A DNA stretch of 64,000 nt from a virus (IMGVR_UViG_2852743531_000003:64001-128000); one strand, 5' to 3'; counted from the first letter of the stretch, positions 12,327 through 63,316 are shown. The notes: generated by a model not told the origin, from the sequence alone. Numbers and translations: made by a program.

Positions 12327-12532
12327 CATGGCGCTCGCACGTGAAGCATGTCAGCTAACGCCATATGGCCCGCAGCATATCGGACTGGCTATCCCGATGT
12401 AATAGAAGAATGTCGAACCTTGCACGGATATCTGATCGTGCGCAGCGGTTTCAGATGTCATGCCATCTCCCAGGCTAACCGGCAGGCCCACCTCCCAAAT
12501 TCTATGTCCTGAACATCGCGCGAGGCCCGGTC

Positions 12533-32974: not shown

Positions 32975-33061
32975 TGGAGCATCCATGCGTGGAAATATGG
33001 CGGAGCGTGGTATGCCGATCACGTCGCAGGTCACTAGAACAATTTTTGTCGTCCGGGTATT

Positions 33062-33375: not shown

Positions 33376-33468
33376 CTCTGTCCCCGGCGGTTGGCAACAT
33401 CTCCCCCGAGGGCATTGGCCGCGACCGTCTCGAAGGACCAGTAGCGTGGATCGTGATGGAACGCAAAG

Positions 33469-38509: not shown

Positions 38510-39529
38510 ATGGATATTCACGAGCGCGCACGCGGCGAGGTTCGACTTTTCTGCTGCGGCGGCGGTGGCATGAACATCGGCCACAAGGTCGCCAGTTATG
38601 CCAGCGACAACAATAAGAGTGACAAGTTTGCCAAGCTCGATGTGGTGTACATGGACACGTCGAAGGCGAACCTGCGCTCCGACATCAATCCCGAGAAGTT
38701 CTATCTGGTCAATCGCCCAGGCACCATCGAAGGCTCGGGGCAGGAGCGCGCCGAAAACTTCGATCCGATCAGCGCTCGCGTGGGCAACATTCTGCAGAAG
38801 TTCAAGCCGGTCGATCTGAATATCGTTCTCTCCACCGGCGGAGGTGGATCCGGCGCGGTGATAGCAGCCTCGATCGTGTCGGAGCTGCTTGCGCACGACG
38901 CGTCGACCCTCGCGATCTGCGTGGGCGATGACAGTACGAGGAAGTTCGCTCAAAACACGCTCAAGACGCTGAAGTCGTATGAGCGCATCGCCACGGAAAC
39001 GCGGCACTCGCCGGTGAACCTCGTCTATCTGCAAAATAGCCGGGACATGACGCGTGCGGCCATCGACAGCCGCATCCAGCACGTCGTCGCCGCACTGTGC
39101 ATGCTCTATTCGGCCCGTAACCGCGAACTCGACGCCAAGGATCTCGAAAACTGGCTGCGCTACCAGAAGGTCACCTCCTACAGGCCGGCACTCGCCTCGC
39201 TCACGCTCATCAGCGATCTGGGCCGCGCGTGTCTCGATGATCTCGGCAATCTCATCAGCGTCGCGACGCTCACCCAGGCCGATCACGACCCAACGCTGCC
39301 CGTTCGCAACGATGTGCAGTACATCGGCTATCTGGAAGGCACGCTGCCGGAAAAACTGAACCTGAAGGCACCGTATCACTACGTCATCTCGGACGGCATC
39401 CTGCCCAGAGTCGCAGCCGACCTGAATGCGGTGCTGCAGGAGATGCAGGAGCAGAGCGACACGCGCATTCTGCCCAATGCGATCAGCTCAACGACGGACG
39501 TGAGCACCAGCAACGGCGTCGTGCTGTAA
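38510..39529 (+). CDS. phuZ: PhuZ phage tubulin
   Basis: 339 aa; CGGGGMNIG, MDTS, GSGQER and tubulin signature STGGGGSG; short hydrophobic C-terminal tip; phage context. Confidence 0.92.
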   Translation: MDIHERARGEVRLFCCGGGGMNIGHKVASYASDNNKSDKFAKLDVVYMDTSKANLRSDINPEKFYLVNRPGTIEGSGQERAENFDPISARVGNILQKFKPVDLNIVLSTGGGGSGAVIAASIVSELLAHDASTLAICVGDDSTRKFAQNTLKTLKSYERIATETRHSPVNLVYLQNSRDMTRAAIDSRIQHVVAALCMLYSARNRELDAKDLENWLRYQKVTSYRPALASLTLISDLGRACLDDLGNLISVATLTQADHDPTLPVRNDVQYIGYLEGTLPEKLNLKAPYHYVISDGILPRVAADLNAVLQEMQEQSDTRILPNAISSTTDVSTSNGVVL

Positions 39530-47950: not shown

Positions 47951-49069
47951 TCACGCAAGACTCGTGCTATCCGCGTGGACAGGATTTGCCTTGTGACGGA
48001 TTGCATCGAACTCGTCGAGTACCGCCTGGTATGTAAGCGCATTCATCACGCCTTCGAAAAGACGCTCCTGCTGCCAGCCAAGAAAGGTGCGGTTCAGCAG
48101 GTTGATTTCCGACTGGTTAAGCGTACCTGGCGTGTCACCCGATGCGCCCAGTACGAAGTCGAGCATCGGCAGGCGAGCGATGGCGAGCGCCCACATGACC
48201 TGTCTCGTCGGCGCCATGTCAGGTAGATGCATGGCCTCTTCAAGAGTGTGATGTGCTGCTACCGGCACGCTTTGTAAAACCCCGATGAAATTCTTGCGTT
48301 GCCTTGTGAGGCCCACTAGGATTTCTTCATAGCAGTGATCAAGTCGCACCGAGTAATCGGCCAGCGCAAACGGATGTTTCCGTGTCGACCACCCCGCAGG
48401 TACACGCGCCTGCAGGCGGCGAATCCGGTTAAGGAGAGTTTGATCGAGTTGACTGAAGAGCATGTTGGGTAGCACGAACCTGTGCACGAACATCGTGACG
48501 GACTTTTCATCCACGCGACCCGCGCTTCTTTTTTCTTCTTCACGAAACGCGCGATACTGAACCATCAGCATGGGAAGATTGATAGCGATTACAGCCATTC
48601 CCGTTTCCGACCCTGTGAAGTGACCGTCGGGTAAATTCATTTCCAGATCACTTCTGGCATGTCTCAATACACGTAGAGGTGTGGCATTGCGCCAATCCCG
48701 ATGGGCCAGCGCGAGATCAAAGTACTCCGTATGGACAACGAGTATCTCGTCATGGCCCGCGCCGTAAAACTCACCGTTCCAGACTTTTCCCCTGAATATC
48801 GAGGACGTCATTTTCATTGCCATCGACAGGTTGAGCGCCATCGCGTCGACATTGGCATGGTAACGCTCGAGCGCGAGTGAGAGCGGAACATCGACGCTCT
48901 GAACCAGTTTCACCAACGGATGACTGCTTTTGACTGCCCCCGGCGCATGCCGGTAGTACCGGATGACCTGTCCCAGATTGCGACGCAGGCCATCCCGGAT
49001 GGCGTGCCACGCTCCCGGCACCTGAATGCCCTGGAGCGAGCGTGGTGACAGGTTGAATAGCGTGTGCAT
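47951..49069 (-). CDS. Conserved phiKZ-like protein (gp52-like by position)
   Basis: 372 aa, divergent from chimallin, between the polymerase and chmA genes. Confidence 0.75.
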   Translation of the reverse strand: MHTLFNLSPRSLQGIQVPGAWHAIRDGLRRNLGQVIRYYRHAPGAVKSSHPLVKLVQSVDVPLSLALERYHANVDAMALNLSMAMKMTSSIFRGKVWNGEFYGAGHDEILVVHTEYFDLALAHRDWRNATPLRVLRHARSDLEMNLPDGHFTGSETGMAVIAINLPMLMVQYRAFREEEKRSAGRVDEKSVTMFVHRFVLPNMLFSQLDQTLLNRIRRLQARVPAGWSTRKHPFALADYSVRLDHCYEEILVGLTRQRKNFIGVLQSVPVAAHHTLEEAMHLPDMAPTRQVMWALAIARLPMLDFVLGASGDTPGTLNQSEINLLNRTFLGWQQERLFEGVMNALTYQAVLDEFDAIRHKANPVHADSTSLA

Positions 49070-49386
49070 GGTTCGATATATCGGATGACAGAACTTCGCC
49101 CATAACATTGAAGCGACCCCGTGCCGGCACCCAGTACGGGATGCGCCGGACGCGTGCGCGGGTTGCTGTCCACCCATTGGAGAGAACTGCGTCGGGTAAG
49201 AATTTACCGCCGCTGTCTATATCCTTTGGAGGGGACACTTCGCATTCCTTTCCATCTGGCTGACCGAAACAGGCCCGGCCAGGGAATGCCGTGTCATGTC
49301 TCTTTGAACAGATGTGATCTTCCGAACGCCTGAGCGCACTTGCGTGATATCGGCGCGGGTGGTTCGATTCAACGGAATTTCACTGA

Positions 49387-49459: not shown

Positions 49460-51508
49460 ATGGCAGTGAATCAACCTTCGAAGAATGCTGCGCGCGACGC
49501 GGGCGCGGACCCGGGCATGGTGCATGCATTCAATCAGGGAATGGATCCCGAAGGCCAGCAGCAGGAGCAGGCACCCGGCGCATCCGCTTCCCGGACCCGT
49601 GGCCAGAGCGGCCAGTTCTCGTTCACGTCGGCCAATGATTACGTCCCGTCCGTGATCTCCCGGCACAAGGGCGGTGAGGCTCTCGGGAAGATCACCGAGA
49701 TGCTCAGGAGCGAGTTCAAGGAACGAGATCCGGACCACGAACTGGAGCTCATCCCGATCAACTGGAAAGATACCGTTGACCTGTATTTCTCGGCCGTAGT
49801 GGTCACCCTGCGCCACAAGGCCTGGCTCGACCGTGGCGTCGCCTACTACACCCTCATCATCGAGGGCTCGGCGCCGGCACTGGAGTCTGTGTCGCGCTTT
49901 GTGGCCAACGAGACCATCACCGAGCTGCGGCTGACCGGCGATACGAACAACCAGATACTCAACAACGAAGTCAGGAATCGCCTCGAGAAGGTGTACCCGA
50001 TGGTTCCGCAATGGGGCGCCGGTGTCTGCGTGGTACCGCGTGACTTCAACCCGGCGAACGAAGAGCTCGCGCACAAGCTGGCCGTCTGTGCCGGCAACGC
50101 GTGCTCGTCCGAGCTCTCACGTAACAAGCCGGGCGGATGGCATGACCTGAACCTTGCTGACGCGGTCGGCAACGAGGTCCTGACGGTGCGCCCGAAGTTC
50201 GGCAATGAGCAGATCTACAACGCCGTGGGCCATCCGGTGCGGGCCGATGTCGAAATCCGCACCACGGTTCCTGGCCAGCTGGTCCAGGGCCAGCAGGATG
50301 CGGCCGTGCGCGACACGACCGTCACGCTCGTTCGTGGCTTCGTGGATCTGGTCTGGGCACCGGTTGACCAGCAGAACCAGCCCTACGCCCAGTGGGTTGC
50401 GCCACAGCAACTTCAACCGGGTGGCGTCCATCCGTCGCAGTACCAGAAGTACCTGCCGCGGTTTGTGGCAACACAAAGCGAGTCGGAGAAGGTGCCCACC
50501 CTCGGCGGCCAGCTACTCTCGCTCGTTTCTGCGGCGTGTCTGTCCACGAACATGCTGTGGGCTGAAGCCTTCCGTCCTGCGAAGGAGCGCAGCGGTGGCA
50601 GCGACGTCGACTGGAAAAATATCGGGGCGCTCAATATCGAAGCGAACTTCGAGAATAGTGCAACGGGTTACGGCGTGCCTCTGGACAGCACGCTCGATTC
50701 ATTCACCCGGCAGAACCCCCAGAATGGCAGCGAGTTCCACAAGCTCATCGCCAGCACGATCCGGCAGCGGCTGGCCGTCTCGGTCGACATCCCCGAGTGC
50801 GGTCCGGAGACGGCGCTCTCTGAGGCGATCCTGCTCGCCGGCGACAGCGACGCCGAAAACCGCCGTACGGGCAACCGGATGCTCGTCGGCTCCTCCATGG
50901 ACCTGACCAACGGCCTGTTCGTCAAGAACTACATGGCTCTCGTCGATACCCTGGCGCGGCAACAGCATCCGGACGCCCTGAGCCGACAACGGCTGCAGCT
51001 GGAGGACCACCGGCTCGTGACCGACGAGTACAACCGGATTCACCTCGGTTACTTCATCTACAGGACCGGCGAGAAGCTCGATATCCGCTTTATCGACTAT
51101 CTCGCGCTGCTGGCAACCCAGGGCACCAGCAACCACCAGGATGTCCTCGAATGGTCCGATACCTTCTCCGACGTCAACCTGCCGCTGAACCTGCGGATTT
51201 CCCGCCGCCAGAAGATCATCGAGGGAATCGTTGGCGAACGCAACGTGACGTACACGGGCTTTGCGCGTCGCTGCACGCTCGACAACATCTTCTTCACTGC
51301 GCTCCTGATGTCGATTGCCGAACTCAAGATCAAGATGAACGTCGACTCGGTGGCCGGCCATCAGCCGCAGTACCGGCGCCCGATCAATCCGTTCGTCGCA
51401 GACGCCGCCCTCGATCCCGGTATCAATCTCGGGCTCTTTGGCTCCAGCTACGCAGGGCCGTCGCAGCAGTACGGCAACCGTGCGGGCTTTAACCGCTTCA
51501 TGTACTGA
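49460..51508 (+). CDS. chmA: Chimallin, phage nucleus shell protein
   Basis: 682 aa; VGHPVRADV, WAEAFRP..KNIGAL, IHLGYF..GEKLDIRFIDYLA and VTYTGFARRCT match recalled ChmA segments; Q-rich N-tail; aromatic C-terminus; directly upstream of the nvRNAP beta' gene. Confidence 0.9.
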   Translation: MAVNQPSKNAARDAGADPGMVHAFNQGMDPEGQQQEQAPGASASRTRGQSGQFSFTSANDYVPSVISRHKGGEALGKITEMLRSEFKERDPDHELELIPINWKDTVDLYFSAVVVTLRHKAWLDRGVAYYTLIIEGSAPALESVSRFVANETITELRLTGDTNNQILNNEVRNRLEKVYPMVPQWGAGVCVVPRDFNPANEELAHKLAVCAGNACSSELSRNKPGGWHDLNLADAVGNEVLTVRPKFGNEQIYNAVGHPVRADVEIRTTVPGQLVQGQQDAAVRDTTVTLVRGFVDLVWAPVDQQNQPYAQWVAPQQLQPGGVHPSQYQKYLPRFVATQSESEKVPTLGGQLLSLVSAACLSTNMLWAEAFRPAKERSGGSDVDWKNIGALNIEANFENSATGYGVPLDSTLDSFTRQNPQNGSEFHKLIASTIRQRLAVSVDIPECGPETALSEAILLAGDSDAENRRTGNRMLVGSSMDLTNGLFVKNYMALVDTLARQQHPDALSRQRLQLEDHRLVTDEYNRIHLGYFIYRTGEKLDIRFIDYLALLATQGTSNHQDVLEWSDTFSDVNLPLNLRISRRQKIIEGIVGERNVTYTGFARRCTLDNIFFTALLMSIAELKIKMNVDSVAGHQPQYRRPINPFVADAALDPGINLGLFGSSYAGPSQQYGNRAGFNRFMY

Positions 51509-51520
51509 AGCATCCAGACT

Positions 51521-51555
51521 GCCGGCAGGGGAGGCTTCCCCTGCCGGCGTTTTTT
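51521..51555 (+). terminator. Rho-independent terminator after chmA
   Basis: GCCGGCAGGGGA-GGCT-TCCCCTGCCGGC then GTTTTTT. Confidence 0.88.
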
Positions 51556-51680
51556 CCGCCACAGCAAGGATGTTCCGGCGCAATGACAGCAACACCGTCG
51601 AACGACAGGCATTTTTTTATTGAACCGGGCAATCCAGTGCAGCAACCGCCCTTCCCAGGTGCCCCTGCTGGAGAACCAAC

Positions 51681-53180
51681 GTGGCAATCAGTTCCCGACT
51701 CGTCAGTCACGATGAGATCTTTCATTACCGTACGTCGCGCGAACCCATCATCATCAATGATCTTCCCGACATCACCAGCGAAGAGAAGGAGCACGTCGAT
51801 AACCTCATATTCACCCGCTACGATCTCATCCACTCGGATTCTCTCTCGAACATCCCGTCGTGCGCATGCGGCAACACCCTCGGCGTCGACAAGCTTGGCG
51901 ACGGCCGCGGCGTTCCTGCGATGGTCTGCCCCGACTGCCACACCGAGGTCACCGCCCCCTACCAGGGCGATCTGGAGCCGCTCATCTGGCTGCGTGCGCC
52001 AAGAGGCGTCAAGGCGCTCATCAACCCGCATGTCTGGACCATGCTGCGCGAGGGATTCCAGAAGAACAGTTTCGATGTGATCCGGTGGCTCTGCGATCGC
52101 ACCTGGAAAGCACCAGTCAGGGAACCGCCGGTGATGGAGGCGATCCGCTCATCGGGACTGCCACGGGGCTACAACAACTTCGTGGAGAATTTCGACGCCA
52201 TCATGGCCTTCCTGTTCAACCTGAAGGACTACGCGAAGAAGGAGCTCGCGCCCCTCAAGGCGTGCCTCGAGCAGTACCGGCACTGCGTCTTCTCGCAGTA
52301 CCTGCCACTACCAAACCGGTCGCTGCTGGTGCTCGAAGACACGCATCACGCGGGCTACACCGACAGCACGACGCCCATCGCGGTGGACGCCATTCGCATG
52401 ATGGTGGGAATTGATTCCCCGATGTCGCCTCACTCGGACATCGTGCGCGAGAACCGCACCATCCGCATGATTGCCCAGACGGCTGAATACTACGACATCG
52501 CCATACGTGACCTGCTTGCGTCGAAGACCGGCGTGTACCGCAAGAACATGTACGGCACGCGCTGCCACTTCGCGTTCCGGGCCGTCATCAGTTCGTACAC
52601 CGACCCGCACGACTATACCGGGGTGCATATCCCGTGGAGCGTCGGCGTCGTCGTGTTCGAGTTGCATCTGAAGAATTTCCTGCTTCGCGAAGGCATGACG
52701 CCGTGGGAAGCCGAGACCTATCTGAACGCGCACGTCAATCAGTACAGCGAGAAGCTTGACCACTTCTTCCAGCGGATCATCGCGGGTTCGCGCGGGCCAG
52801 GTGTGCCGGTGACCATGCAGCGCAACCCGAGCCTGCACCGCGCAAGTATCCAGCTGCTCTTCATCACGCGCGTCACCACCGACGTGAGCGTGCCAACCGT
52901 CTTCTTCAGCATTCTCGATGTGACCGGGCCGAATGCCGACTTCGACGGCGACATGATGAATCTCGTGCTGACGCTCGATCACGTACTGACCGACGAGCTC
53001 TACAGCCTGATGCCGCATCAGAGCACCTTCAGCATGAACGAGCCGCGTGCCCTCTCGAAGAATCTCTCGATGCCGAAGACCGTCGTGCTCACGATCAGCA
53101 ACTGGATCCACTGGCCGGAACCCGATACACCCGATCCAGAAGTGCTGCGGCGCATGGCACTTATCCCCGAAGCTGCCTGA
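51681..53180 (+). CDS. Non-virion RNA polymerase beta'-like N-terminal subunit (phiKZ gp55/56-like)
   Basis: 499 aa; CxC..CPDC zinc finger, RNPSLHR and catalytic NADFDGD. Confidence 0.92.
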   Translation: MAISSRLVSHDEIFHYRTSREPIIINDLPDITSEEKEHVDNLIFTRYDLIHSDSLSNIPSCACGNTLGVDKLGDGRGVPAMVCPDCHTEVTAPYQGDLEPLIWLRAPRGVKALINPHVWTMLREGFQKNSFDVIRWLCDRTWKAPVREPPVMEAIRSSGLPRGYNNFVENFDAIMAFLFNLKDYAKKELAPLKACLEQYRHCVFSQYLPLPNRSLLVLEDTHHAGYTDSTTPIAVDAIRMMVGIDSPMSPHSDIVRENRTIRMIAQTAEYYDIAIRDLLASKTGVYRKNMYGTRCHFAFRAVISSYTDPHDYTGVHIPWSVGVVVFELHLKNFLLREGMTPWEAETYLNAHVNQYSEKLDHFFQRIIAGSRGPGVPVTMQRNPSLHRASIQLLFITRVTTDVSVPTVFFSILDVTGPNADFDGDMMNLVLTLDHVLTDELYSLMPHQSTFSMNEPRALSKNLSMPKTVVLTISNWIHWPEPDTPDPEVLRRMALIPEAA

Positions 53181-53288
53181 GGTACCTGAGCGAATGGCGC
53201 TGCCTTAATGCAGCCCGATCAATCAGGATCACAACCCATCAATCAAGGAAGAAACGACCATGTCTGAATGTTATCTCCGGAGGCAGCC

Positions 53289-53906
53289 ATGATGCTCACC
53301 GCAGGCGACGAGAGTGATTTTGATGCGCTTGTCTATGGCGGCAGCAAGCATCCCGGCACGATCGCCTATCTCCAGAAGCAGCTGGAACCGTTCAGTGGCG
53401 GGCTAACCGAGTTTGGCAGACAGTTCGCCGGTTCAGCGCGCAACCTCTTCGATGCGTTCAACGGATCCGAAGCCATGCGGCTCGCCCGTGCGGCCGTACG
53501 GCGTGTCGACAGCCTGTTCATGAGCGACACGATCCAGACGATCTGGGACATCGGCAGGCTGCAGAACGCGCCCCTGACCATGCAGCGCTGGATCATGGCC
53601 GAGCCTGAGACCCGAAGGCTTTATCACCAGCAACGCTGCGACGGCTATTCAGAAAGCTACGTCGATATGGACCCCGGCCTGAGTGGCGAGGACCACTACG
53701 ACTGGCGCCGCATCCATGACGGCGTGGCGCAGGAAACGGCCGACGGTCAGGTGGTGTTCGAACAATACTGGGAACCGCTCAGAGATGGCGACCGGCATCT
53801 GGAGCTCGACGAACAGAGCGACATCATCGCCACGCACGAGTTCGCCCGCGCGTATGCGCTCGCCGGCAAGGAGGATCACACGAGCAAGGAAGGGGGCATG
53901 CTGTAG
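53289..53906 (+). CDS. Conserved chimallivirus protein
   Basis: 205 aa; LQNAP..MQRWIMAEP..CDGYSE segment; GGAGG RBS. Confidence 0.78.
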   Translation: MMLTAGDESDFDALVYGGSKHPGTIAYLQKQLEPFSGGLTEFGRQFAGSARNLFDAFNGSEAMRLARAAVRRVDSLFMSDTIQTIWDIGRLQNAPLTMQRWIMAEPETRRLYHQQRCDGYSESYVDMDPGLSGEDHYDWRRIHDGVAQETADGQVVFEQYWEPLRDGDRHLELDEQSDIIATHEFARAYALAGKEDHTSKEGGML

Positions 53907-54044
53907 TCGCCAGTCTGATACCCGGCAGCCGCACCAACGCGCCTGCCGGGTACCGTCCCACTGCTCACCCGAGGCAACGACGCGGCCACCTTTCTCCAGA
54001 AGGCCACCCGCCTTTAGCGTGAATTCGCGTGCAGGTAACCCATC

Positions 54045-54491
54045 ATGACCACGCCCGTACCGACACTCTCGACCGCTGGCTGGATCGTTTCGCCCCAGCA
54101 GAAGGCTGACCGGTTAATGGCTCATCTGTACGAGAGCCAGGCCAACCAGTCGTACATTTTCAACGGCAACGTAACGAGCCTGCAGTACCTCATCGCGAAG
54201 AACGCGGGCAACATTCCCGGTACCTGCACTGCGCTGCAGGCCGCCCTGACCTCCTTTTTTTCGCGCTACTACGATCTCGCGAGCGTGCAGGTCGCGAGCG
54301 ACGATGTGCTGAATGGTAACGAAAGCAGCCTGATCACGCTCTACGTCTATGCGGAGCTCACCGAGGATGGCGTCGTGTATCCGCTCAGCGGCCTGATCGA
54401 GCTGTCCAGTTCAAGACTGGTGCGTGTGCTGGCGCTGAACAATGCCGGCGTCACGGCAGCGCAGACAGTGCTTCAGGACATCGCGTCATGA
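54045..54491 (+). CDS. Conserved chimallivirus protein (possibly baseplate/gp25-like)
   Basis: 148 aa; VPTLSTAGW..QSYIF.GNVTSL segment. Confidence 0.72.
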   Translation: MTTPVPTLSTAGWIVSPQQKADRLMAHLYESQANQSYIFNGNVTSLQYLIAKNAGNIPGTCTALQAALTSFFSRYYDLASVQVASDDVLNGNESSLITLYVYAELTEDGVVYPLSGLIELSSSRLVRVLALNNAGVTAAQTVLQDIAS

Positions 54492-55180
54492 ACATCGAAC
54501 CGCAAGAACCGGGCGGTGTGCCGGCTCCCGTTGCCTACGGCGACCCGCGTCGCCTTAACAGCAACGGAGGAAGCCCCTGTACCGATGGCCAGTTACGGCC
54601 CGATGCCCCCATACCGGCGCGGGTCGAGAGTTGCGTGCGGCGCCTCGAGCGCGCGATCTACGGTGCCATGATGTTCGACCAGCACGAGTACCTCGAGCAT
54701 CGGCGATTGCCTCATACCCTCCGGACCTGGGAAGTCCGTACCACACCCTGGCTGCTCGAGGATGGCTACATCCTCGCGCTGACCGATTTTCCCGTGGCAA
54801 CGGAGACCTGCTGCGTTGTCGCCTTTACGCCAGTCTACGCGGATGGGCGCACGGCAATGGACCGGAGCACGCAAACCGATGCGATGTCGCTGGAAGTCGT
54901 GGACTACGAGGTGTTCACTTATCAGGAGCGGGGCCACACCGCGTATGAAAACGCCCGCATGATTCTTCACCCGCGTTACCTCGCCGAACTCAGACGGCAG
55001 GCCTTTGCACTGAAGCTTCAGTACATCCAGTTTTTCTACTTCACCCAGCTCATTCCGAAAGTTCGCGAAGCCTTCGAGGATCCTGAAGGCCATCTCGAAA
55101 GGATTCTTGAACGATTGCGCGAGGTATCCCGCGCGGGATCGTCACCGGATCAGCCAACGCCCGTCGGCGGCGCAGGATGA
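54488..55180 (+). CDS. Hypothetical phage protein
   Basis: 230 aa, ATGA overlap with the previous gene. Confidence 0.72.
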   Translation: MNIEPQEPGGVPAPVAYGDPRRLNSNGGSPCTDGQLRPDAPIPARVESCVRRLERAIYGAMMFDQHEYLEHRRLPHTLRTWEVRTTPWLLEDGYILALTDFPVATETCCVVAFTPVYADGRTAMDRSTQTDAMSLEVVDYEVFTYQERGHTAYENARMILHPRYLAELRRQAFALKLQYIQFFYFTQLIPKVREAFEDPEGHLERILERLREVSRAGSSPDQPTPVGGAG

Positions 55181-55223
55181 ATGGCGCGGGTATCGATCCG
55201 GGCCGGACGTCCATTCCCCCATC

Positions 55224-55826
55224 ATGAAACCATCTACTGAAACCCCCGCTTCACCCGACGCCCACCCGGGTGACTTCATCAATACGGTGGCGCAGAACCT
55301 GCATGAGATCGCCAGCCAGGACGTCGCCAAACTGCCCGAGGACCAGTTCGTCCACGTTTTTCTGCCGCTGCTCGCACGCGATGCCGAACTGCCGTATCCC
55401 GTCACCATGGCCGACTGGATCTCCATTGCCGGTGGCCCCTGCAAGCCGGTCGACGTGTTCGACAACGCAACGGGCCAGACGCTGTTTCGCGTCCCCCCCT
55501 TCCTCGACTACCACGGCATCAATCCCGTCAGGGACATCCACAACCGCGCTGCTGGCCAGGCCGCCTTCACCGACATCGTCGCGACTGCCGCGAAACTTGC
55601 GGGACTGCACCCGAATCAGGCGAAGGCGTTTATCGAGCAGTCACTACGTGAGCGCGCCAGTTTCATGAACAACACCGCGGTGCTCGCGCTCCATGTTCTT
55701 CAGTGGAACGCCATTCTCGGGCGCTACGGTCGCGAACCGTTGTACGCCGAATCAGAAAAGGCGGCCGGCGCTGCGCTCGCCGCTAAGGGCGGCCCCGTTA
55801 CTCCCGACGTGTATGAGGACTTCTGA
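55224..55826 (+). CDS. Conserved chimallivirus protein
   Basis: 200 aa; LPE..FV..FLP..WISIAGG..LFRVPP segment. Confidence 0.75.
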   Translation: MKPSTETPASPDAHPGDFINTVAQNLHEIASQDVAKLPEDQFVHVFLPLLARDAELPYPVTMADWISIAGGPCKPVDVFDNATGQTLFRVPPFLDYHGINPVRDIHNRAAGQAAFTDIVATAAKLAGLHPNQAKAFIEQSLRERASFMNNTAVLALHVLQWNAILGRYGREPLYAESEKAAGAALAAKGGPVTPDVYEDF

Positions 55827-56928
55827 TATCCATCTCGCGGTTGCCAGCGACATCCATCTCGGCAACCGGCGCACGCCTACGCAAGGCATCCTGCGCAACC
55901 TGCGGGCCGCCTTCCCCGATAACGAAGAAACGGCACAGCTGGACGTGATCTGTCTGGCAGGCGATGTCTTTGACACCCTCTTCCCGCTCAACGATGAAGA
56001 TGTGCCGCAGATCGACTTCTGGATCCGCGATCTGCTGCTGCTCTGCAAAAAGCACGACATCATCCTGTACGTGCTGGAGGGTACACGCAGTCACGACTGG
56101 GAGCAGTCGGCACGCTTTGTCACGATCAATGAGATCGCCGGCATCAACGCCAGACTCAGATATGTGCGCGAGATCAGCATCGAGTATGAACCAGCTCTCG
56201 ATCTCTGGATCGGGTTCGTACCAGATGAGGCCACGCCCGACACCGACAGGACGCTCAGCGAATTCCGCAGCCTGATGAAGGCAAAGGGGATCGGGAAGGT
56301 CGACCTGATGTTCATGCATGGTCACTTCGAGTTCCAGCTTCCGGCGGCCGCGCGCGTACCGAAACACGATTCAGCCGCGTGGCTGGCGATTACACGTTAT
56401 CTGGCGTTCATTGGTCACAACCACCGGCATTCATCCTTCGACCGCATCTACGCGCAGGGCTCCTTCGACCGGTACTCACACGGACACGAAGAGCCGAAAG
56501 GTCACCTGAGGGCGGTGTTGCATACCTCGGGAGACCATGAAGTCACCTTTATCGAAAATACCGGCGCGCGTCTGTACATCACGATCGACTGCACCGACCT
56601 TGATGTGGAAGCCGCATTACGCGCAATTGACGGGCGTGTTCGCGAGCTGCCAGAACATTCTGCGGTTCGCATCCAGGCCATGCATGACCATCCACTGCTC
56701 GCAGACATGGACGCGCTCATCAGGCTTTATCCGTTCTTCAGCTGGAGCAAGCTTCCGGTTCGTCCCGACGAGGAAGAGCGCAAGGCTTACGACGACAGCG
56801 AGGTCTTTGAACCCGTCACCATTCATGCCGGCAACATCCTGCAGCTGCTCACGGAACGCATGATCGCCTCGGGCGTGAGTCCAACGGTCGTCGCCGTCGC
56901 ACAACAGAAAATCCAGGAGGCTATGTGA
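55813..56928 (+). CDS. sbcD: SbcD/Mre11-like metallophosphoesterase nuclease
   Basis: SDIHLG, AGDVFD, EGTRSHD, MHG and GHNH motifs. Confidence 0.87.
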   Translation: MRTSDIHLAVASDIHLGNRRTPTQGILRNLRAAFPDNEETAQLDVICLAGDVFDTLFPLNDEDVPQIDFWIRDLLLLCKKHDIILYVLEGTRSHDWEQSARFVTINEIAGINARLRYVREISIEYEPALDLWIGFVPDEATPDTDRTLSEFRSLMKAKGIGKVDLMFMHGHFEFQLPAAARVPKHDSAAWLAITRYLAFIGHNHRHSSFDRIYAQGSFDRYSHGHEEPKGHLRAVLHTSGDHEVTFIENTGARLYITIDCTDLDVEAALRAIDGRVRELPEHSAVRIQAMHDHPLLADMDALIRLYPFFSWSKLPVRPDEEERKAYDDSEVFEPVTIHAGNILQLLTERMIASGVSPTVVAVAQQKIQEAM

Positions 56929-57827
56929 TGTCCGCCACCGCTGGCCTCACCGCCCGTGCCATGGGCTATTTCCCGCTCTCCGTTGGCACGTCTCTCGCAC
57001 TCGAAGGCGCGTTCGGCATTCATCCTGACCACCAGGAGTCTCCGGCGCCAATCCTTCGTTATGACGAACTCTGGTGCAACCTGAAGACGCTCTTGCGCAA
57101 CTGCATGGGCGCGCTGGATAAAACGACGGCAGGCGCCGTGTTTCCCGACGAGCTGGCATGGACACTTCAGGAAGAGCTCAGCCAGCTTTCGGAGCTCGTC
57201 GCCGAAGCCACACAGAACCGTTGCAGGACCGTGTACTACGTAAGCAATTACGCGGGGCTCGCGCAGAAATATCCCTTCGCTACGTTGCGCACGGATTCGA
57301 CCGCACGCCAGAAGCAGTATGCCGCGATCCAGAAAGACACTATCGCCCTCATGCTGAAGACAGCACGGGCGCAGGAACGACAGGAGGATGAGCAGCGGCA
57401 TGACCGGATCGCTGTCTTTGATCTTAAGCTTGCGCCAGCGACTCCGGATCCCAAATCATCGTCGCCAAAAATCCTGCTGCTGACCCACTACGCCTACGAC
57501 CTCTTCTCCGCGAAGCGCTTCAGGGAAATGACGCTGCTCGAGTCACATACCGGGCGGCTCAAGGAGAAAGCCCTCTGGCACACCAAGTACGCCCAGGGGC
57601 GCGAGCTCACGATGATCCCCTTTCGCGAGGATCTCATCCAGGTGTTCGGCGATTCGGAACTCTTTGCTCCCATGCGTCTGGAACTTCGACGCGAACTGCT
57701 GCAGATCGCACAGAAAATGCAGTGGAACCCGACCACCACCTTCGAGCGCATCGCGCTCGGCGTGGATCTCATGAAAAACCCCTATGCCCGCGAAGTCCTG
57801 AAGAAGATCATTTCCAGCCGCTACTAG
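56925..57827 (+). CDS. Conserved chimallivirus protein (gp66-like by position, possibly nuclease fold)
   Basis: 300 aa; PLSVGTSLALE, LLLTH..YDL and LLESHTG segments. Confidence 0.72.
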   Translation: MMSATAGLTARAMGYFPLSVGTSLALEGAFGIHPDHQESPAPILRYDELWCNLKTLLRNCMGALDKTTAGAVFPDELAWTLQEELSQLSELVAEATQNRCRTVYYVSNYAGLAQKYPFATLRTDSTARQKQYAAIQKDTIALMLKTARAQERQEDEQRHDRIAVFDLKLAPATPDPKSSSPKILLLTHYAYDLFSAKRFREMTLLESHTGRLKEKALWHTKYAQGRELTMIPFREDLIQVFGDSELFAPMRLELRRELLQIAQKMQWNPTTTFERIALGVDLMKNPYAREVLKKIISSRY

Positions 57828-57915
57828 ATCACGCGATCAGCGACACGGAAATTTTTATTGAACGCGGCCATGCTGTGTCATGCGACCGTGCCAATCCAAC
57901 CATTGAGGATTCCCC

Positions 57916-58599
57916 ATGCCTGAAAACCGCAAGGCGCGCAGCAAAACCATACTCGACAGCCGCCGGCTCATGCTTTCCGCACCGCTTCAGGGCAAGACCG
58001 GCAATGACGGCAAGAAGATCTGGGCGTCACTGTATGTCACTGTGTTTGCCAATACACCGTTCATCACGGTGTTTACCAATGATCCCGATGATCGCGATAA
58101 CGATGGCGGGCGTATCAGCGCCGAAATTTCGCCGGTCGAATTCATTGGCACGCTCATCGACTTCGAACGGGTGATCGCCGGACCCGATGGCAAGGAAAAC
58201 AAACGCCAGCTTTGCAACGTCGAGCGTGACCGCAATCCGGCCCAGGGCGAGAAGCCCGCGGTACGCTCTGCATTCTGCTACGGCAAGGATGAGGACGGAA
58301 TCGTCTGGGTTGCGCTGTCGGCCAAAGGGCGGCCCAATATCCGGTTCGATTTCGGTTACAGCCGCTATCACTTCCTGCAGCACAAGGCCGGCGAGCAGTA
58401 CAGCAAGGCAGAGGCATCCCAGCTCTTTGCGCTCGGCTGGATACATCTCGTTCGACAGTTCGTCACCGACCTGATGCGAACGGAGTACGAACATCCGCAA
58501 CCCCAGAACGATGGTGGTGGCAAAAATAACAGGGGCCGGGCTTCAACTTCTGCAAAGTCCCACTATGCTGAAGTTGAGGAGGACGATATTCCCTATTAG
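57916..58599 (+). CDS. chmC: Probable ChmC-like nucleic-acid-binding protein
   Basis: 227 aa directly before the gp68-like gene, where ChmC is recalled to lie; beta-rich core with G/N-rich tail ending EEDDIPY. Confidence 0.6.
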   Translation: MPENRKARSKTILDSRRLMLSAPLQGKTGNDGKKIWASLYVTVFANTPFITVFTNDPDDRDNDGGRISAEISPVEFIGTLIDFERVIAGPDGKENKRQLCNVERDRNPAQGEKPAVRSAFCYGKDEDGIVWVALSAKGRPNIRFDFGYSRYHFLQHKAGEQYSKAEASQLFALGWIHLVRQFVTDLMRTEYEHPQPQNDGGGKNNRGRASTSAKSHYAEVEEDDIPY

Positions 58600-58688
58600 C
58601 GAGTCAGGAGTCGCCCCGCCTTCTGCATTGCCCGGATAACTTCCCTTGCGTCGCCATCGTCGGCAGCAGCCAGGACAGAACAACTCCG

Positions 58689-58716
58689 GCAGGTCAGTCA
58701 GACCGGGCTGACCTGC
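58689..58716 (+). terminator. Intergenic hairpin
   Basis: GCAGGTCAGTC-AGACCG-GGCTGACCTGC. Confidence 0.45.
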
Positions 58717-58761
58717 CCTATTCCCCCAACAGAACGAGCCCGACGAATCGAAACGAATCTG

Positions 58762-58774
58762 GGTGACATATCAC
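58762..58774 (+). promoter_or_regulatory. GGTGACATATCAC putative early promoter variant
   Basis: One mismatch to the GGTGATATATCAC motif, about 40 bp upstream of the gp68-like gene. Confidence 0.55.
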
Positions 58775-58815
58775 TATCTTGCTGAAATGCCGACGCGTTT
58801 TAAGGGAGATAGAAA

Positions 58816-60381
58816 TTGAAACTGCGAATCAGCAGAATCGGCCTGACTGACAACAATCTCACCGAGGTTGCACTGGAGCATGGTGGAGAGAGTCTCGAAT
58901 GGAATATTTCTGAATTCAAGAACATCGTCAGGAATCTCGACTACGACGTTTTTGACCAGATCAACCAGTACTGGGCGAGGATGCCACCGGAGCGGCAGGA
59001 CGAAGCTTACGCGGTATATGCGGAGATCCGTGATGTGTTCCGGGAGTGCTACGAAACACATGCCCTGACGCGCAGGCTGCATGCTCCGGTTGCCCGACTC
59101 TGCGAGTTGCATCCACTCGAAGATATCCGGCACTGGATTGCGTTTTACAGCAATCTTCGCTGCCCGGACGATGTGAAGGACGAGTTCGTGCCGTACGAGA
59201 TGCCCGGCACGCGTGACGGTACCTATGTACGCGAGGAATATGAATGGCTCGTCGCTCTGTCGATTGCGCTGCGGGTGATCTTTCCCGTGTGGGGCGAATT
59301 CATCGCGCGCATCCGTGCCGAGGTGCCGACCGGCTGGAAGGAGTTCTACGCCTGGCAGCTACTCGCAGCTACCGGCCTCGGTCAGAGCCCCCCGATGGAG
59401 CGTCTGCGCGGTTACGTGGAGTACTGGTCGCGTGTCGGCGCGGGACGGCACGATGTCGAGAAGTCCGCGCACGTCTTCAGGGGCATCAGTACCGAAGACT
59501 ATCCGACGCTGCTCACGGCACTTGTGCTGGTGCGCAAACTCACCATTGCCGATGTGCGAGGGCTCGACACGTCGTCGAACCTCGTCTCCTGCGTATTCAC
59601 CTTCATCAGGCACAAGACACGGCCCGGTTCGGAAGGAGGCTTTAACGCGATCATCAAGGAGAAGAAAGAAACCGAAACGTATGGTCAGGATATCGAGAAC
59701 CAGCAGTCGCGACTCGAGGCATGCAAGGAGAAGATGCCGGTCGCCGACGGCAAGATTGCGCCCATCAGGTATTACGCGCGCGACATGCGCCACATCGCGC
59801 GGCAGATTGCACCAGACATGCCAGCCGATTGCCTGGAGATGTCGTTCGAGTCCGTGAAGGTGCTCGAGCACGTCAGGGAGCGCAAGGTCCAGATGACCCT
59901 GACCATGTATGTCCTGCAGTACCGCAAGCAGTTGCAACCCCGCGCCCTCTTCCATTTGCCGCGCGCCTCGATCCTGCAGGCGTTCGCCGTCGCCCAGGCC
60001 GTGTACTGGCACAAGGGCTATCGCGAGCTGGCCGCGCTCGTGAGTGCGCTCCCGGTATCCGATGCCGACGTCATGTATCTCGGCAGCCTCGAGGCACGCT
60101 CAAAAATTCCGGCCGCCATGATCGCGGAACTGGAACGATGGTTTCCCTACCGGCGCATGCCGGGCGGCAAATCGAAAACAGCGCGTGTACCGACCTGTGC
60201 CGAGCTGGCGATTGATGACGTGGTCAGGCAGCTCGGCGAAACCGGCTGGCGCCTGACCCTTCCCCCCGAATGGGTGGCCGAGCTCACCCGCAATCCACGC
60301 GAACGGCATTACGCGGTGCCCGGCAACATCCGGATCAAACTCGCGCAACTCAGCATTGCGCTTGCATCAAGGAGCTTTTAA
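58816..60381 (+). CDS. nvRNAP promoter-specificity (sigma-like) subunit, phiKZ gp68-like
   Basis: 521 aa, TTG start with GGAG RBS; size and position; VFDQINQYW and PVWGEFI segments. Confidence 0.7.
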   Translation: MKLRISRIGLTDNNLTEVALEHGGESLEWNISEFKNIVRNLDYDVFDQINQYWARMPPERQDEAYAVYAEIRDVFRECYETHALTRRLHAPVARLCELHPLEDIRHWIAFYSNLRCPDDVKDEFVPYEMPGTRDGTYVREEYEWLVALSIALRVIFPVWGEFIARIRAEVPTGWKEFYAWQLLAATGLGQSPPMERLRGYVEYWSRVGAGRHDVEKSAHVFRGISTEDYPTLLTALVLVRKLTIADVRGLDTSSNLVSCVFTFIRHKTRPGSEGGFNAIIKEKKETETYGQDIENQQSRLEACKEKMPVADGKIAPIRYYARDMRHIARQIAPDMPADCLEMSFESVKVLEHVRERKVQMTLTMYVLQYRKQLQPRALFHLPRASILQAFAVAQAVYWHKGYRELAALVSALPVSDADVMYLGSLEARSKIPAAMIAELERWFPYRRMPGGKSKTARVPTCAELAIDDVVRQLGETGWRLTLPPEWVAELTRNPRERHYAVPGNIRIKLAQLSIALASRSF

Positions 60382-61875
60382 GTGATGGACATCCCAACCC
60401 GCATCGTCGTCCGGCGGCTGATCATCAGCCCGACGGGCACCTACAACACCCAGTACATGCGCCCCTACGACAACACGCTCCAGGGGCCGGGTCTCAATGC
60501 CATATGCGAAACGCTCTGCGGTGAGAACCGTTATACGCCGGCACGTCTTGCCGGCATCGCCAACCAGATCGTGTCGCCCGCAGCGACGCCCGAAAAGGCT
60601 ATCGGCATCGTCAATGGCTGGGACGCCACACGCTGCCGGTATTTCATGGAAGTGGAATCACACAGCATGGGAGGCGCTGTGTCTGTCGTCAAGGTGCTCG
60701 GCTGGACCAACTACATGGGGATCGTCAACACGGGCAGCTGCCATATCGATCCCAACATGGAGTTCTATGTGAATTCCGTGGTCCAGGTTCGCGAATATAT
60801 CGAGACCACCCCACTGGGCAACCAGCCTCATACCAACGTCGCGGAGAATGCGCACGTGCTGGTCGATCCGACGTACTTCGATGCGTATGTCAAAGAGAAG
60901 ACGATGAGCATGCGGCCCGAGGACATGTACGCAACGATGAGTCTGAACCATCTGCACAACATGGGCGACACGCTCGACACACGCACGACACTGACGCGCG
61001 TACCGGTTGCGTCGACCCGGAGCAATTCCATTGCGGCGTTTTACGCGGCCGCAGTGCTCGACAACTACAAGAAGGCGGCGGACAGCAACAACTTTGGCCT
61101 CCAGCCGGAAACCGAGGTACTCGATTCGGCACGCGGTTACGCGCAGGACAGCGTCCTGGCGCTCAACCCGTTTTTCCGCGCGATGCAGGAGTATCGTGAG
61201 GGCATGCTCACGAACTTCTTTACCTGGAGTGACCTGTGCCGGCTCGACCCGGATGTGGTCCACAAGGTCAAGGCACTGGAACTGCCGGCCAGCACCCGTG
61301 TGCATCGCGTGGGTAGCGGCATGTCCCAGGACTGGGGGGGATCCGACCGGCTCACGCAGGTGGCGACGATCCTGGCCCAGTCCGTGCTAGCCCTGATGTC
61401 CGTGTACACACTGACCCGATTCGCCTTTACCGCTACCAATCGCCAGGTGTTTTCATCGAATGCGCCCAGCGGCGTGGACGGGCACTCCTCCATCACGTTC
61501 ATTCCGGGTGATGCAGAGAGTTTTTCGAGGCGCGATCTCTCGCCTTTCATCGAGCAGTTCAGGATCAACCTGGAGCACATGATCCTGAAGGACGTGTCGC
61601 ACAACAACCAGATCGACTTCTGGCTGGAGATGAGAATCAATCTGCTGGGCGAGACGTGGATAGATATCTCGCTCGACGGCGGCCCTGTCATCACTTATGT
61701 GTCACCCAGCTTCGCCGATGCATTAATGGTGCCGGTCGTGACGACCCAGACCCATCTGGGCCAGCGGCTTGCCGGGGACTTCCACGAAATCTGCACGACC
61801 ATCGCCAACTACGACGGCATGACCAGCACCCAGCCGGCAGCCATGCCCCAGAAGCCACGCTACGGGCTCATCTGA
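60382..61875 (+). CDS. picA: Probable phage-nucleus protein import factor PicA/Imp1 (phiKZ gp69-like)
   Basis: 497 aa directly after the gp68-like gene; RPY, IVNGW..R..F and MRPED segments; called mainly on gene order. Confidence 0.65.
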   Translation: MMDIPTRIVVRRLIISPTGTYNTQYMRPYDNTLQGPGLNAICETLCGENRYTPARLAGIANQIVSPAATPEKAIGIVNGWDATRCRYFMEVESHSMGGAVSVVKVLGWTNYMGIVNTGSCHIDPNMEFYVNSVVQVREYIETTPLGNQPHTNVAENAHVLVDPTYFDAYVKEKTMSMRPEDMYATMSLNHLHNMGDTLDTRTTLTRVPVASTRSNSIAAFYAAAVLDNYKKAADSNNFGLQPETEVLDSARGYAQDSVLALNPFFRAMQEYREGMLTNFFTWSDLCRLDPDVVHKVKALELPASTRVHRVGSGMSQDWGGSDRLTQVATILAQSVLALMSVYTLTRFAFTATNRQVFSSNAPSGVDGHSSITFIPGDAESFSRRDLSPFIEQFRINLEHMILKDVSHNNQIDFWLEMRINLLGETWIDISLDGGPVITYVSPSFADALMVPVVTTQTHLGQRLAGDFHEICTTIANYDGMTSTQPAAMPQKPRYGLI

Positions 61876-61948
61876 ATCCGGCCTGATCCCAAACCAGAAA
61901 CCTGACACTCACAGAGCGGGAGCGCGAGAAGCGCTCCCGATTCAATCC

Positions 61949-63316
61949 ATGACACCAACCCTGCTCGAAGTCTATCGACAACTGCTGAAAACGGCGAATC
62001 TCACCGTCACCGCCGACAACATGATTTCCGGAACCATCCTCGCAGAAACGGAACCTGTTCTCGTCGAGGGAAAGCGGCTTGTGCTGCCCACCCCCGAATT
62101 TCAGGCGATGGACAAATCGGAGATCGTGCTCTTTCACCCGCTGAGCGAAATGATTACCCGGGGCAAATCTCCGGTACTGGAGAAGTTTCGTTCCCTGCTG
62201 ATCTACCGTTTCAACGAAGTCGCAAGCGGTCATATCGTCAAGCTGCTGCGTATCGCGGTGGAGAAAGAGAATCACAAACACCTCACGCCAGACCAGTCAG
62301 AATTCCTTTCGCTCGTCAAGCACGCCGACCAGAGCACGCGGGATCTCGCCAGCAAGGTTCTCGATGCCATGGAAGTGGGTCAGACCGCGCGCCAGATTGT
62401 CACCCTCTTCCTGAAGAAGACCGGTCTGGTTGCAGGCAAGAGTCACAAGCGCGTGGGCGTCGTGAGCTTTCCGCTATATGAGGAGCTGAAAAAGCCGGAG
62501 CATGACATCTGGGGGATCAAGTGCCGGGTGAAGGACAAGGAGACCCTCGCCGCGCTGCTGGAGTTCATCTTCCCCCGGATCGGCGAAGCGCAGGCGTACG
62601 ATCGCGGCACGGACTCCGATATCGCACCCAACCTTCACGCGCTGATGCAGGCATCGCTTGGCATTATCCAGGCGCTCAACGACATCACCGAAAAGTTCGA
62701 GAGCCAGATCAGCACGCCCGAAGTCCCGGCGAGTGTTCATCTGATCGACGCCGACTGGCAGGAAACGTTCATGAATCTCGGGATGATGCAGGCGCAGATC
62801 TGGCGCGTTCCGCCGCAGGCAGGCAACGAGGGTGTCCCCTGGGACGAACCGGAGCCAGCTGCGTCCACCACGCAGGCGCCACAGCCGGCGGATCATGCGC
62901 CTCGCCCGGTAGCCGCATCCGCACCCGGCGTACATGTTCCGCCGGCACGTGTGTCGCTTGACGAAGTGATGGCGCGCGGGGCATCTGCTGCACAGTCTCA
63001 GGCGCAGCCCCAGCCCCAGCCCCAGCCACCGCAGTCTGATCTGCGCTATACCGACCGGGGCCTCGACTTCAGTTCCGTCATCCGTAGCAATCCCGCACTG
63101 GCCAGCGTCGAGCCGTTCGCACCGGTTCAGCCGCCACCACCGCCGCAAACGTCGGAATGGGCCCAGCGCGCCACGCTCGCGCTTAACCGTCAGTCGGTCT
63201 ACCCGGGCAACTATCCCAGCAATTACCCGGGCACCTACCCTGCTGCCTGGCCCGGCAACCCCACCGGCCCGGGTCCATACGGCGGAGCGCCAGGCACAAG
63301 GCGCGGACTGATCTGA
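61949..63316 (+). CDS. Conserved chimallivirus protein with Pro/Gln-rich disordered C-terminus (gp70-like)
   Basis: 455 aa; GKRLVLPT..FHPLSE..RGKS.V segment; tail with QP and YPxN repeats. Confidence 0.75.
   Translation: MTPTLLEVYRQLLKTANLTVTADNMISGTILAETEPVLVEGKRLVLPTPEFQAMDKSEIVLFHPLSEMITRGKSPVLEKFRSLLIYRFNEVASGHIVKLLRIAVEKENHKHLTPDQSEFLSLVKHADQSTRDLASKVLDAMEVGQTARQIVTLFLKKTGLVAGKSHKRVGVVSFPLYEELKKPEHDIWGIKCRVKDKETLAALLEFIFPRIGEAQAYDRGTDSDIAPNLHALMQASLGIIQALNDITEKFESQISTPEVPASVHLIDADWQETFMNLGMMQAQIWRVPPQAGNEGVPWDEPEPAASTTQAPQPADHAPRPVAASAPGVHVPPARVSLDEVMARGASAAQSQAQPQPQPQPPQSDLRYTDRGLDFSSVIRSNPALASVEPFAPVQPPPPPQTSEWAQRATLALNRQSVYPGNYPSNYPGTYPAAWPGNPTGPGPYGGAPGTRRGLI

Follow-up and report, generated by a model that had tools for sequence, protein, structure and literature searches.

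We analyzed a 64,000-nucleotide stretch of viral DNA (hereafter the window), which comprises bases 64001-128000 of the 140,992-bp IMG/VR record IMGVR_UViG_2852743531_000003 (hereafter G000), a record classed as 'provirus' with an estimated completeness of 53%. Window positions 49460-63316 contain twelve plus-strand open reading frames (ORFs), all of them uninterrupted, and as far as sequence can tell this region is almost certainly the 'nucleus and non-virion transcription' block that is conserved in PhiKZ-like jumbo phages (chimalliviruses). Without its context, the block is ordinary for a chimallivirus, a textbook module; the surprise is the apparent plasmid lifestyle of the phage that carries it. 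A plasmid-type parA-parB-rep module lies 8.4 kb past the block, outside the window and on the minus strand (G000 135755-139451). Coordinates below are those of the window unless G000 or another contig is named.

Positional counterparts were assigned by local blastp searches against the annotated PhiKZ and PhiPA3 regions. The conserved block starts upstream of the twelve ORFs with a DNA polymerase gene homologous to gp50 (45347-47548, plus strand; 36-37% identity over 716-734 aa), which is followed on the minus strand by a gp52-like gene (47951-49177; 30% identity, E = 4e-35) whose PhiKZ counterpart is annotated as 'structural head protein'. All remaining features listed here lie on the plus strand. 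The gene for ChmA, the major nuclear-shell protein and gp54 homolog (49460-51508, 682 aa), has 23-25% identity to its counterparts and matches PHROG 4795 and PF25677. Directly 3' of it lies a terminator-like hairpin (51520-51549; a 13-pair stem with 10 G-C pairs, then a T run), which is a pattern match only. Next come a non-virion RNA polymerase (nvRNAP) subunit homologous to gp55 (51681-53180; PHROG 2987, 1.3e-135; Pfam RNA_pol_Rpb1_2; 32% identity to PhiKZ gp55), an Imp3/gp59 homolog (53268-53906; PHROG 3254, 1.2e-46; 29-30% identity to gp59 and PhiPA3 gp55), and a gp62 homolog (54045-54491; PHROG 3294, 5.7e-27; 26% identity). A 230-aa ORF (54488-55180) has no PHROG or Pfam match; it is 69% identical to a relative on assembly G008, with a ratio of nonsynonymous to synonymous substitution rates (dN/dS) of 0.23. 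The second half of the block encodes an SbcD-like nuclease subunit homologous to gp65 (55693-56928; PHROG 100, 7.9e-52; 35-36% identity), a gp66 homolog (56925-57827; PHROG 3229, 2.2e-75; 28% identity), a homolog of ChmC/Imp6, that is, of PhiPA3 gp61 and PhiKZ gp67 (57916-58599; PHROG 3284, 3e-34; 24-29% identity, E = 1e-11 to 1e-12), the fifth nvRNAP subunit, homologous to gp68 (58816-60381; PHROG 3209, 2.8e-102; 22-23% identity), a homolog of PicA/Imp1 (gp69), a protein-import factor by homology (60382-61875; PHROG 3141, 1.6e-82; 24-27% identity to gp69 and PhiPA3 gp63, E = 4e-35), and a homolog of gp70 and of the shell-associated PhiPA3 gp64 (61949-63316; 30-31% identity, no Pfam match). 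A PHROG family was assigned to nine of the ten ORFs scanned. The gp66-like, PicA-like, and gp70-like proteins have no sequence relatives in the PDB. Sigma-70-like sites are rare in the block (one observed versus 4.2 expected; pattern match only).

The block thus carries homologs of gp50, 52, 54, 55, 59, 62, 65-70, 71/73, 74, and 75 in the same order and orientation as PhiKZ gp50 to gp75, reverse-strand gp52 included, with the fused gp71/gp73, gp74, and gp75 helicase homologs lying just past the window. It differs from the PhiKZ/PhiPA3 block in its identities of only 22-37%, a 20-aa insertion and longer tails in ChmA, the gp71/gp73 fusion, the lack of a gp56 homing-endonuclease gene, and the plasmid module after the block. 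These results bear out the preliminary description of this DNA, which had placed chmA, nvRNAP beta', sbcD, chmC-like, gp68-like, picA-like, and gp70-like genes here in chimallivirus order without frameshifts: all seven are found at these positions as uninterrupted ORFs, and every gene pairs with its PhiKZ positional counterpart. The Imp3/gp59 homolog is a further block member that was missing from that list. In addition, the homologs of PhiKZ gp71 and gp73, which are pieces of nvRNAP beta, form one 766-aa ORF (G000 128566-130866), and no gp72-like gene separates them. Against the closest relative, dN/dS is 0.07-0.39 for each of the 14 block genes tested.

The names used for several of these proteins follow published work, as far as the accessible portions of the papers extend: PicA corresponds to PhiKZ gp69 and PhiPA3 gp63 (PMC11087766), ChmC to PhiPA3 gp61 and PhiKZ gp67 (PMC11077065), and Imp1, Imp6, and Imp3 to gp69, gp67, and gp59, the last being a core import factor in PhiKZ (10.1101/2024.03.27.586873). 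The gp68-like protein had been listed among the phage-nucleus genes. Its identity is confirmed by PDB 7ogp_B, PHIKZ068 (7.6e-40, residues 8-516 against 6-516), and it is to be read as an nvRNAP subunit, not as a shell factor, in line with 10.1101/2024.03.27.586873, where gp68 belongs to the polymerase; the same source states that gp70 does not bind Imp1.

Upstream of the block, the window encodes a homolog of the tubulin PhuZ (38510-39529, plus strand; PHROG 4733 'tubulin PhuZ', 3.1e-77; 30% identity to PhiPA3 PhuZ, E = 2e-18), which positions the phage nucleus in model chimalliviruses. As inferred from their homologs in PhiKZ and PhiPA3 and from the shared gene order, during lytic growth ChmA would build a shell around the phage DNA, the gp55, gp68, gp71/73, and gp74 homologs would transcribe inside it, the PicA/Imp1, ChmC/Imp6, and Imp3 homologs would handle protein import and possibly messenger RNA at the shell, and PhuZ would position the nucleus. 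A chimallin homolog, nvRNAP and virion RNA polymerase (vRNAP) multisubunit enzymes, and PicA/Imp1, ChmC/Imp6, and Imp3 in a conserved block place the phage in the Chimalliviridae.

To place the phage among its relatives, we used an alignment-based ChmA profile scan with one genome per species, which found three relatives that single-protein ChmA scans of viral and genome contigs had missed. A Caballeronia arationis contig and a contig of a Rhodoferax metagenome-assembled genome came from the same scan. The identical ChmA sequence also sits on a contig of 282,688 bp, from which the approximately 141 kb of G000 were cut. ChmA proteins with 58%, 50%, and 35% identity to that of the window are a protein that NCBI assigns to Paraburkholderia adhaesiva (contig of 284,264 bp), a JGI (Joint Genome Institute) protein (contig of 275,198 bp), and a protein of Paraburkholderia sp. 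BCC1886 (contig of 286,074 bp), respectively. ChmA was present in two of 213 species genomes of the genus. Within the phage collection, where 99 records matched, the best ChmA match was Burkholderia phage FLC9 (30.5% identity over 96% of the protein). Megablast of the block DNA against 50,697 phage records gave no match, nor did ChmA match any of 72,556 PLSDB plasmids. The relatives compared gene by gene are contigs G008:C5, G002:C11, and G001:C275. G008:C5, whose ChmA is letter for letter that of the 58% relative, matches 103 of the 120 ORFs of G000 in the same order (G008:C5 49.9-185.4 kb), with a median identity of 82.9% for the 63 ORFs of at least 200 aa.

The parA-parB-rep module lies right after the gp75-type helicase gene, among phage core genes. 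ParA (400 aa) contains an AAA_31 domain (3e-38) and shares 66% identity over 99% of its length with ParA/RepA proteins of Caballeronia/Burkholderia megaplasmids in PLSDB, which are often the first gene of their record. ParB has ParB_N and HTH_ParB matches, both under the Pfam cut-offs, and is 54-60% identical to plasmid ParB proteins. The Rep-like protein that adjoins parAB (416 aa) belongs to no Pfam family; it has 56-59% identity to proteins named 'Replication protein O' or to unnamed parAB neighbors in 118 Burkholderiaceae plasmid records, and no match among the 50,697 phage records. ParA homologs in the phage collection are only 29-33% identical and come chiefly from plasmid-prophages such as N15, PY54, and phiKO2, and none was found in the isolated lytic relatives FLC9, PhiKZ, and PhiPA3 (0 of 3). 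The identical gene order occurs on the circular plasmid AP014580.1. The dN/dS values of ParA (0.026), ParB (0.073), and Rep (0.33) indicate purifying selection. Moreover, the module occupies the equivalent gene-order position on G008:C5 and G002:C11, and it therefore predates the split from lineages whose ChmA is only 35% identical. G000 combines phage virion and packaging genes with plasmid replication and partition genes, which is the gene content that defines a phage-plasmid.

Two further observations concern this module. The Rep-like protein (G000 135755-137005) is 65% identical to that of the distant G002:C11 versus 57% to that of the close G008:C5, whereas most other genes show the opposite, a pattern that suggests a swap of replication initiators between lineages. 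The parB-rep intergenic region contains an exact 14-nt direct repeat with a palindromic core, CAGTTTCCAGCTGG, present twice 65 bp apart (G000 137095-137173). The pair could serve as a centromere-like or iteron-like site, or could have arisen by chance; apart from it, nothing convincing was found among repeats around parAB-rep.

Bacterial-type DNA joins the phage in the closest relative. G008 is a five-contig Paraburkholderia assembly (3.38, 1.91, 0.91, 0.49, and 0.28 Mb) in which C1 to C4 each have their own ParA/ParB, and the sole pair of C5 is the phage-borne one. G008:C5 consists of 222.8 kb of phage and, at its two ends (1-48.3 kb and 271.07-284.3 kb), 61.5 kb of bacterial-type DNA. The latter encodes oxidoreductases, major facilitator superfamily (MFS) and ATP-binding cassette transporters, porins, regulators of the IclR, LysR, and DeoR types, and a type VI secretion system (T6SS) cluster with TssF, TssA, TssM, Tle3, VgrG, TssC, TssK, TssL-OmpA, a Clp-type ATPase, and TssE; no plasmid replication or partition gene was present among the ORFs scanned there. 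Homology to genomes of the genus has two sharp edges, a left one at 48,285-48,314 (one genome places it at 48,795) and a right one at 271,071-271,074, and the phage map is opened there between two genes that are neighbors in G002:C11 and G001:C275. G002:C11 has an exact 125-bp end overlap that closes it at a length of 285,949 bp, and the 10 largest of its ORFs that lack a G008:C5 counterpart encode tail fibers, NAPRTase, RecJ, and the like. G001:C275 (143,740 bp) keeps the G002:C11 gene order throughout.

A comparable junction is found at the left edge of G000. Its first 830 bp are unmatched in G008:C5, with the match beginning at position 831, and a C40/NlpC-type bacterial gene at this edge abuts the same 1035-aa phage gene as the G008:C5 junction. 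The first ORF of G000 has 86 relatives in Burkholderia/Paraburkholderia besides itself (87 proteins returned), some of them named C40/NlpC peptidase. A 96,257-bp Logan contig from two runs, possibly the source of the record, runs 2,338 bp further left than G000. A run from another organism and study contains a relative with 91% identity to the first gene of the phage, and here too the likeness ends near G000 position 906, so that a further strain has a closer relative of this phage than any genome compared. The right end of G000 falls within phage genes, and the 'provirus' boundaries are therefore unreliable and not both real. As a separate observation, G008:C5 carries three tandem tyrosine-recombinase genes (57743-60125) in a 3.7-kb insertion within its phage part, which we take to resemble a recombinase-in-trio mobile element; G000 does not have this insertion.

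On balance we favor, with moderate confidence, the reading that the window belongs to the resident phage-plasmid form of a nucleus-forming phage, an extrachromosomal replicon of approximately 283 kb in a Paraburkholderia-type bacterium. The plasmid-derived parA-parB-rep module would replicate and partition this replicon, and tens of kb of bacterial-type cargo would sit beside a single constant position in the phage map. As long as the element stays a plasmid, its nucleus genes would be off and its DNA would lack a shell, since ParA-type partition presumably works on the nucleoid; a switch to lytic growth would turn expression of the block on. By the same reasoning, a ParAB-partitioned state argues against a permanently enclosed genome. 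We read the contigs of the clade (282,688, 284,264, 286,074, and 275,198 bp) as separate replicons of similar size. The possibility, raised in the preliminary description, that the element is resident in bacteria gains real but indirect support from the 282,688-bp contig behind the record, the bacterial gene at its edge, the parA-parB-rep module, and the relative that forms a separate contig of five, and the form supported is plasmid-like, not integrated. The host-type islands within the window's phage and the three-recombinase insertion in G008:C5 are further signs of residence.

However, several points weigh against a resident phage-plasmid. The 141 kb of G000 contain no HTH_3 match above the cut-off, no S24 peptidase, and no integrase, and hence no lysis-lysogeny switch was identified. 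The analysis covered these 141 kb of the 282,688-bp parent contig, and the depth figures are those of the phage contig itself. G008:C5 has no detected end overlap, and its circularity is deduced from the five-contig assembly. The bacterial flank is absent from the distant relatives, as judged from the 10 largest unique ORFs of G002:C11 and from the whole of G001:C275, and the 61.5 kb of bacterial-type DNA may have been joined to the phage only in assembly. Finally, strictly lytic chimalliviruses occur as whole contigs in isolate assemblies without being plasmids, according to the available text of PMC12768965 and 10.1101/2024.12.31.630880; presence in an assembly alone therefore proves little.

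The last point leads to the first alternative, which we regard as rather unlikely: the host culture harbored a strictly lytic chimallivirus, in a carrier state or by pseudolysogeny, and the two were assembled together, in which case the plasmid-like genes would be accessory and the flanks assembly joins. The full set of virion and packaging genes, the lack of any integrase or repressor found, the self-closing and seemingly phage-only G002:C11, and the all-phage G001:C275 are consistent with such carriage. It also has precedents, as Seoulvirus, Goslarvirus, and 'Bapsvirus' are whole chimallin-encoding jumbo genomes recovered as isolate-assembly contigs, and carrier-like persistence has been proposed for persistent chimalliviruses in the sections of PMC12768965 and 10.1101/2024.12.31.630880 that were available. 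Those phages have Enterobacteriaceae hosts and, in the same portions of text, neither ParA nor plasmid replication genes; a screen for plasmid replication and partition proteins gave lone ParB hits only (10.1101/2024.12.31.630880, accessible part). The phage studied here, in contrast, has parA-parB-rep together with joined bacterial-type DNA, and because of this module it falls outside that class of lytic assembly phages. Furthermore, the module is under strong purifying selection and is found at the same place across relatives with 35% identical ChmA, bacterial-type genes lie against the same phage gene in two independent assemblies, and the G008 element is one of five contigs with no other partition system.

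Integration as a provirus into a chromosome or chromid is improbable; the insertion point would lie between the 1035-aa gene and the homolog of G002:C11 192.2-194.1 kb. The IMG/VR class 'provirus', the sharply bounded bacterial-type genes on both sides of the G008:C5 phage part, and the bacterial-type gene at the left edge of G000 would fit integration, whereas the class label comes with unreliable boundaries, its right end being inside phage genes, and G008:C5 forms an entire contig that carries partition genes of its own. G000 and G002:C11 have no PF00589 or PF00239 gene, and the three on G008:C5 sit in the insertion that G000 lacks. Between the G008:C5 junctions there are no repeats resembling attachment sites, just chance-level matches of 13-17 nt. 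The flanks are widespread over the 213 genomes searched and are never adjacent in those inspected: they lie 240 kb apart on opposite strands in G133, 200 kb apart in G106, and on different contigs in G010. A domesticated or defective element, that is, a Paraburkholderia plasmid which took up a chimallivirus genome and has since lost the ability to form virions or a nucleus, is highly improbable, since against the host-type islands within the phage genome (one with IlvD, an FAD oxidoreductase, and an MFS transporter, the other with VgrG plus four ORFs), the recombinase-trio insertion in G008:C5, and its T6SS and metabolic cargo stand the full length of all block, virion, and packaging genes examined (dN/dS of 0.03-0.39 at dS of 0.3-1.1 where measured), the 103 of 120 ORFs in common order with G008:C5, and a plasmid module that lies among phage core genes and not in the bacterial-type segment.

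If the phage-plasmid reading is correct, it can be extended, tentatively and with more doubt than belief, to a temperate-like nucleus phage that alternates between a quiescent ParAB plasmid state in Paraburkholderia and a ChmA-shelled lytic state. Such a phage would package the whole replicon of approximately 283 kb, including some 55-60 kb of bacterial cargo such as the T6SS cluster; the nearly constant size (275-286 kb) would result from a headful limit, and the fast evolution of ChmA from a conflict with the host.

Known systems resemble this phage in part. FLC9 shares with it a jumbo genome (321,833 bp), a Burkholderia host, and the closest ChmA in the phage collection; it differs in that its record contains no ParA homolog, and there is no DNA-level similarity to the window block. 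P1 is a plasmid prophage, and N15, PY54, phiKO2, and P1 are all phage-plasmids that carry their own partition ATPase and replication functions and are maintained extrachromosomally, as is proposed for the window phage. These phage-plasmids are 40-100 kb in size, have no nucleus, and are not chimalliviruses, and the module of the window phage is closer to Burkholderiaceae megaplasmid genes (55-66%) than to those of any phage. Among Burkholderiaceae plasmid modules, AP014580.1 (Burkholderia sp. RPE67 plasmid p2) has the same gene order, and its ParB and Rep are 55-58% identical to those of the window phage; the 66% ParA matches are other megaplasmids. Unlike in these plasmids, the module of the window phage sits between phage genes. 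As far as titles, abstract openings, term counts, and parts of one paper go, no description of a chimallivirus phage-plasmid or of a Paraburkholderia chimallin was found in the literature. The word 'Burkholderia' does not occur in the available texts of PMC12768965 and 10.1101/2024.12.31.630880, nor do the terms 'temperate' and 'lysogen' in two surveys.

Nucleus-forming phages have been treated as obligately lytic, with a shell that protects them over the brief and violent course of an infection. If our reading is true, a chimallivirus lineage has a working plasmid replicon, and the nucleus-forming lifestyle can coexist with long-term residence in the host. The phage would then be a natural system for studying how shell, import, and transcription genes stay silent and then switch on, whether a resident genome without a shell can withstand the restriction and CRISPR (clustered regularly interspaced short palindromic repeats) systems of its host, and whether large sets of bacterial genes, T6SS clusters for example, are moved by jumbo phages. 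There would also be a third state that the labels 'provirus' and 'lytic phage in an assembly' can each overlook.

Further examination of ChmA supported its assignment. Its PHROG family, 4795, is named 'nuclear shell protein' (3.5e-68), its Pfam match, PF25677, scores 73.1 bits (cut-off 27), and four distinct PDB chimallin sequences (8fne, 7sqt, 7sqq, and 8igg) match it as well. Its ATG start gives 682 aa; a GTG at 49430 would give 692 aa, and the relatives start at ATG. We aligned 13 relatives and then added PhiKZ gp54 and PhiPA3 gp53. In this alignment, residues 494-513 have no counterpart in PhiKZ gp54, PhiPA3 gp53, or eight other relatives, and the two closest relatives have shorter versions of this clade-specific insertion. 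A short insertion relative to ChmA of Pseudomonas phages had been suggested before, and the alignment now confirms and locates it. An AlphaFold2 model built from a 14-sequence alignment (mean predicted local distance difference test score, pLDDT, 69.7; predicted template modeling score, pTM, 0.74) has a folded core at approximately residues 75-630, flanked by tails (1-72 and 632-682) that are predicted to be disordered. In chimallins, the tails make contacts within the lattice. In the model, the insertion appears to extend the helix 487-502 and to add a loop, with pLDDT falling from 84 to 64.

ChmA is also among the more divergent proteins of the phage. Its identity between G000 and G008:C5 (58.4%) is the ninth lowest of the 63 ORFs compared, against the median of 82.9%, and its dN/dS of 0.39 is the highest of the block (0.07-0.23 for its neighbors) at an ordinary dS of 0.75. 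The divergence from the closest relative is spread over the whole protein. This fast evolution could be due to relaxed constraint or to conflict with the host.

For the ChmC-like protein, 660 representative relatives were found at E values up to 0.001, and no PDB relative was found with either the single sequence or a 60-sequence profile. A model based on a 60-sequence alignment (pLDDT 89.1, pTM 0.81) predicts strands at residues 20-70 with a helix at 73-88, strands at 92-145 with a helix at 164-189, and a tail that is predicted to be disordered (pLDDT approximately 53) and contains many G, N, and acidic residues. For ChmC, PMC11077065 describes two sheet-plus-helix repeats, a tandem beta-beta-beta-alpha (Whirly/PUR-like) fold, with a disordered C-terminal tail. 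The Whirly assignment of the window protein rests on its predicted topology and on the nearest named Atlas cluster, 'Whirly' (0.88), which is a lead only. At the positions aligned with the basic residues of PhiPA3 ChmC that cannot be mutated without loss of RNA binding (K30, K48, K59, R35, R44, and R63), the window protein has K or R in one of six, in a register that is uncertain because identity is only 24-29%; two of the six columns are K or R in 45 and 53 of 62 aligned sequences. The protein had been described as a probable RNA-binding factor. The predicted topology fits that role, and with one of the six basic residues aligned the claim is weaker than first put.

Outside the block, the window reads as a complete-looking phage. 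Its first 3498 bases (1-3498) encode a vRNAP beta subunit (PHROG 3148), and a large terminase, a tail sheath, and virion proteins were also assigned by PHROG.

Two host-type islands with a different composition lie among these genes. The first is metabolic and encodes an IlvD/Edd dehydratase (7635-9332, minus strand), a flavin adenine dinucleotide (FAD)-dependent oxidoreductase (9342-10721, minus strand), and an MFS transporter (10805-12136, plus strand). It has a G+C fraction of 0.65 versus approximately 0.60 around it and is absent at the matching place in G008:C5. Beside it lies a transfer RNA gene (12180-12250, minus strand; Rfam 35.1 bits) for which ARAGORN gave no clear anticodon, and the Rfam scan of the whole window found nothing else. 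The island DNA (7400-12400) had one match, with 72% identity, in 31 sampled genomes of the genus; thus, no recent donor was found. The second island (28633-34128) lies directly 3' of the large terminase gene and has a G+C fraction of 0.52-0.54. It encodes a full T6SS-type VgrG (Phage_GPD, T6SS_Vgr, and DUF2345), followed by four ORFs without a Pfam family, and is likewise absent from the matching place in G008:C5. This VgrG is 38% identical to the VgrG of the bacterial-type segment of that relative, and the stretch looks like a phage-carried vgrG-effector-immunity island.

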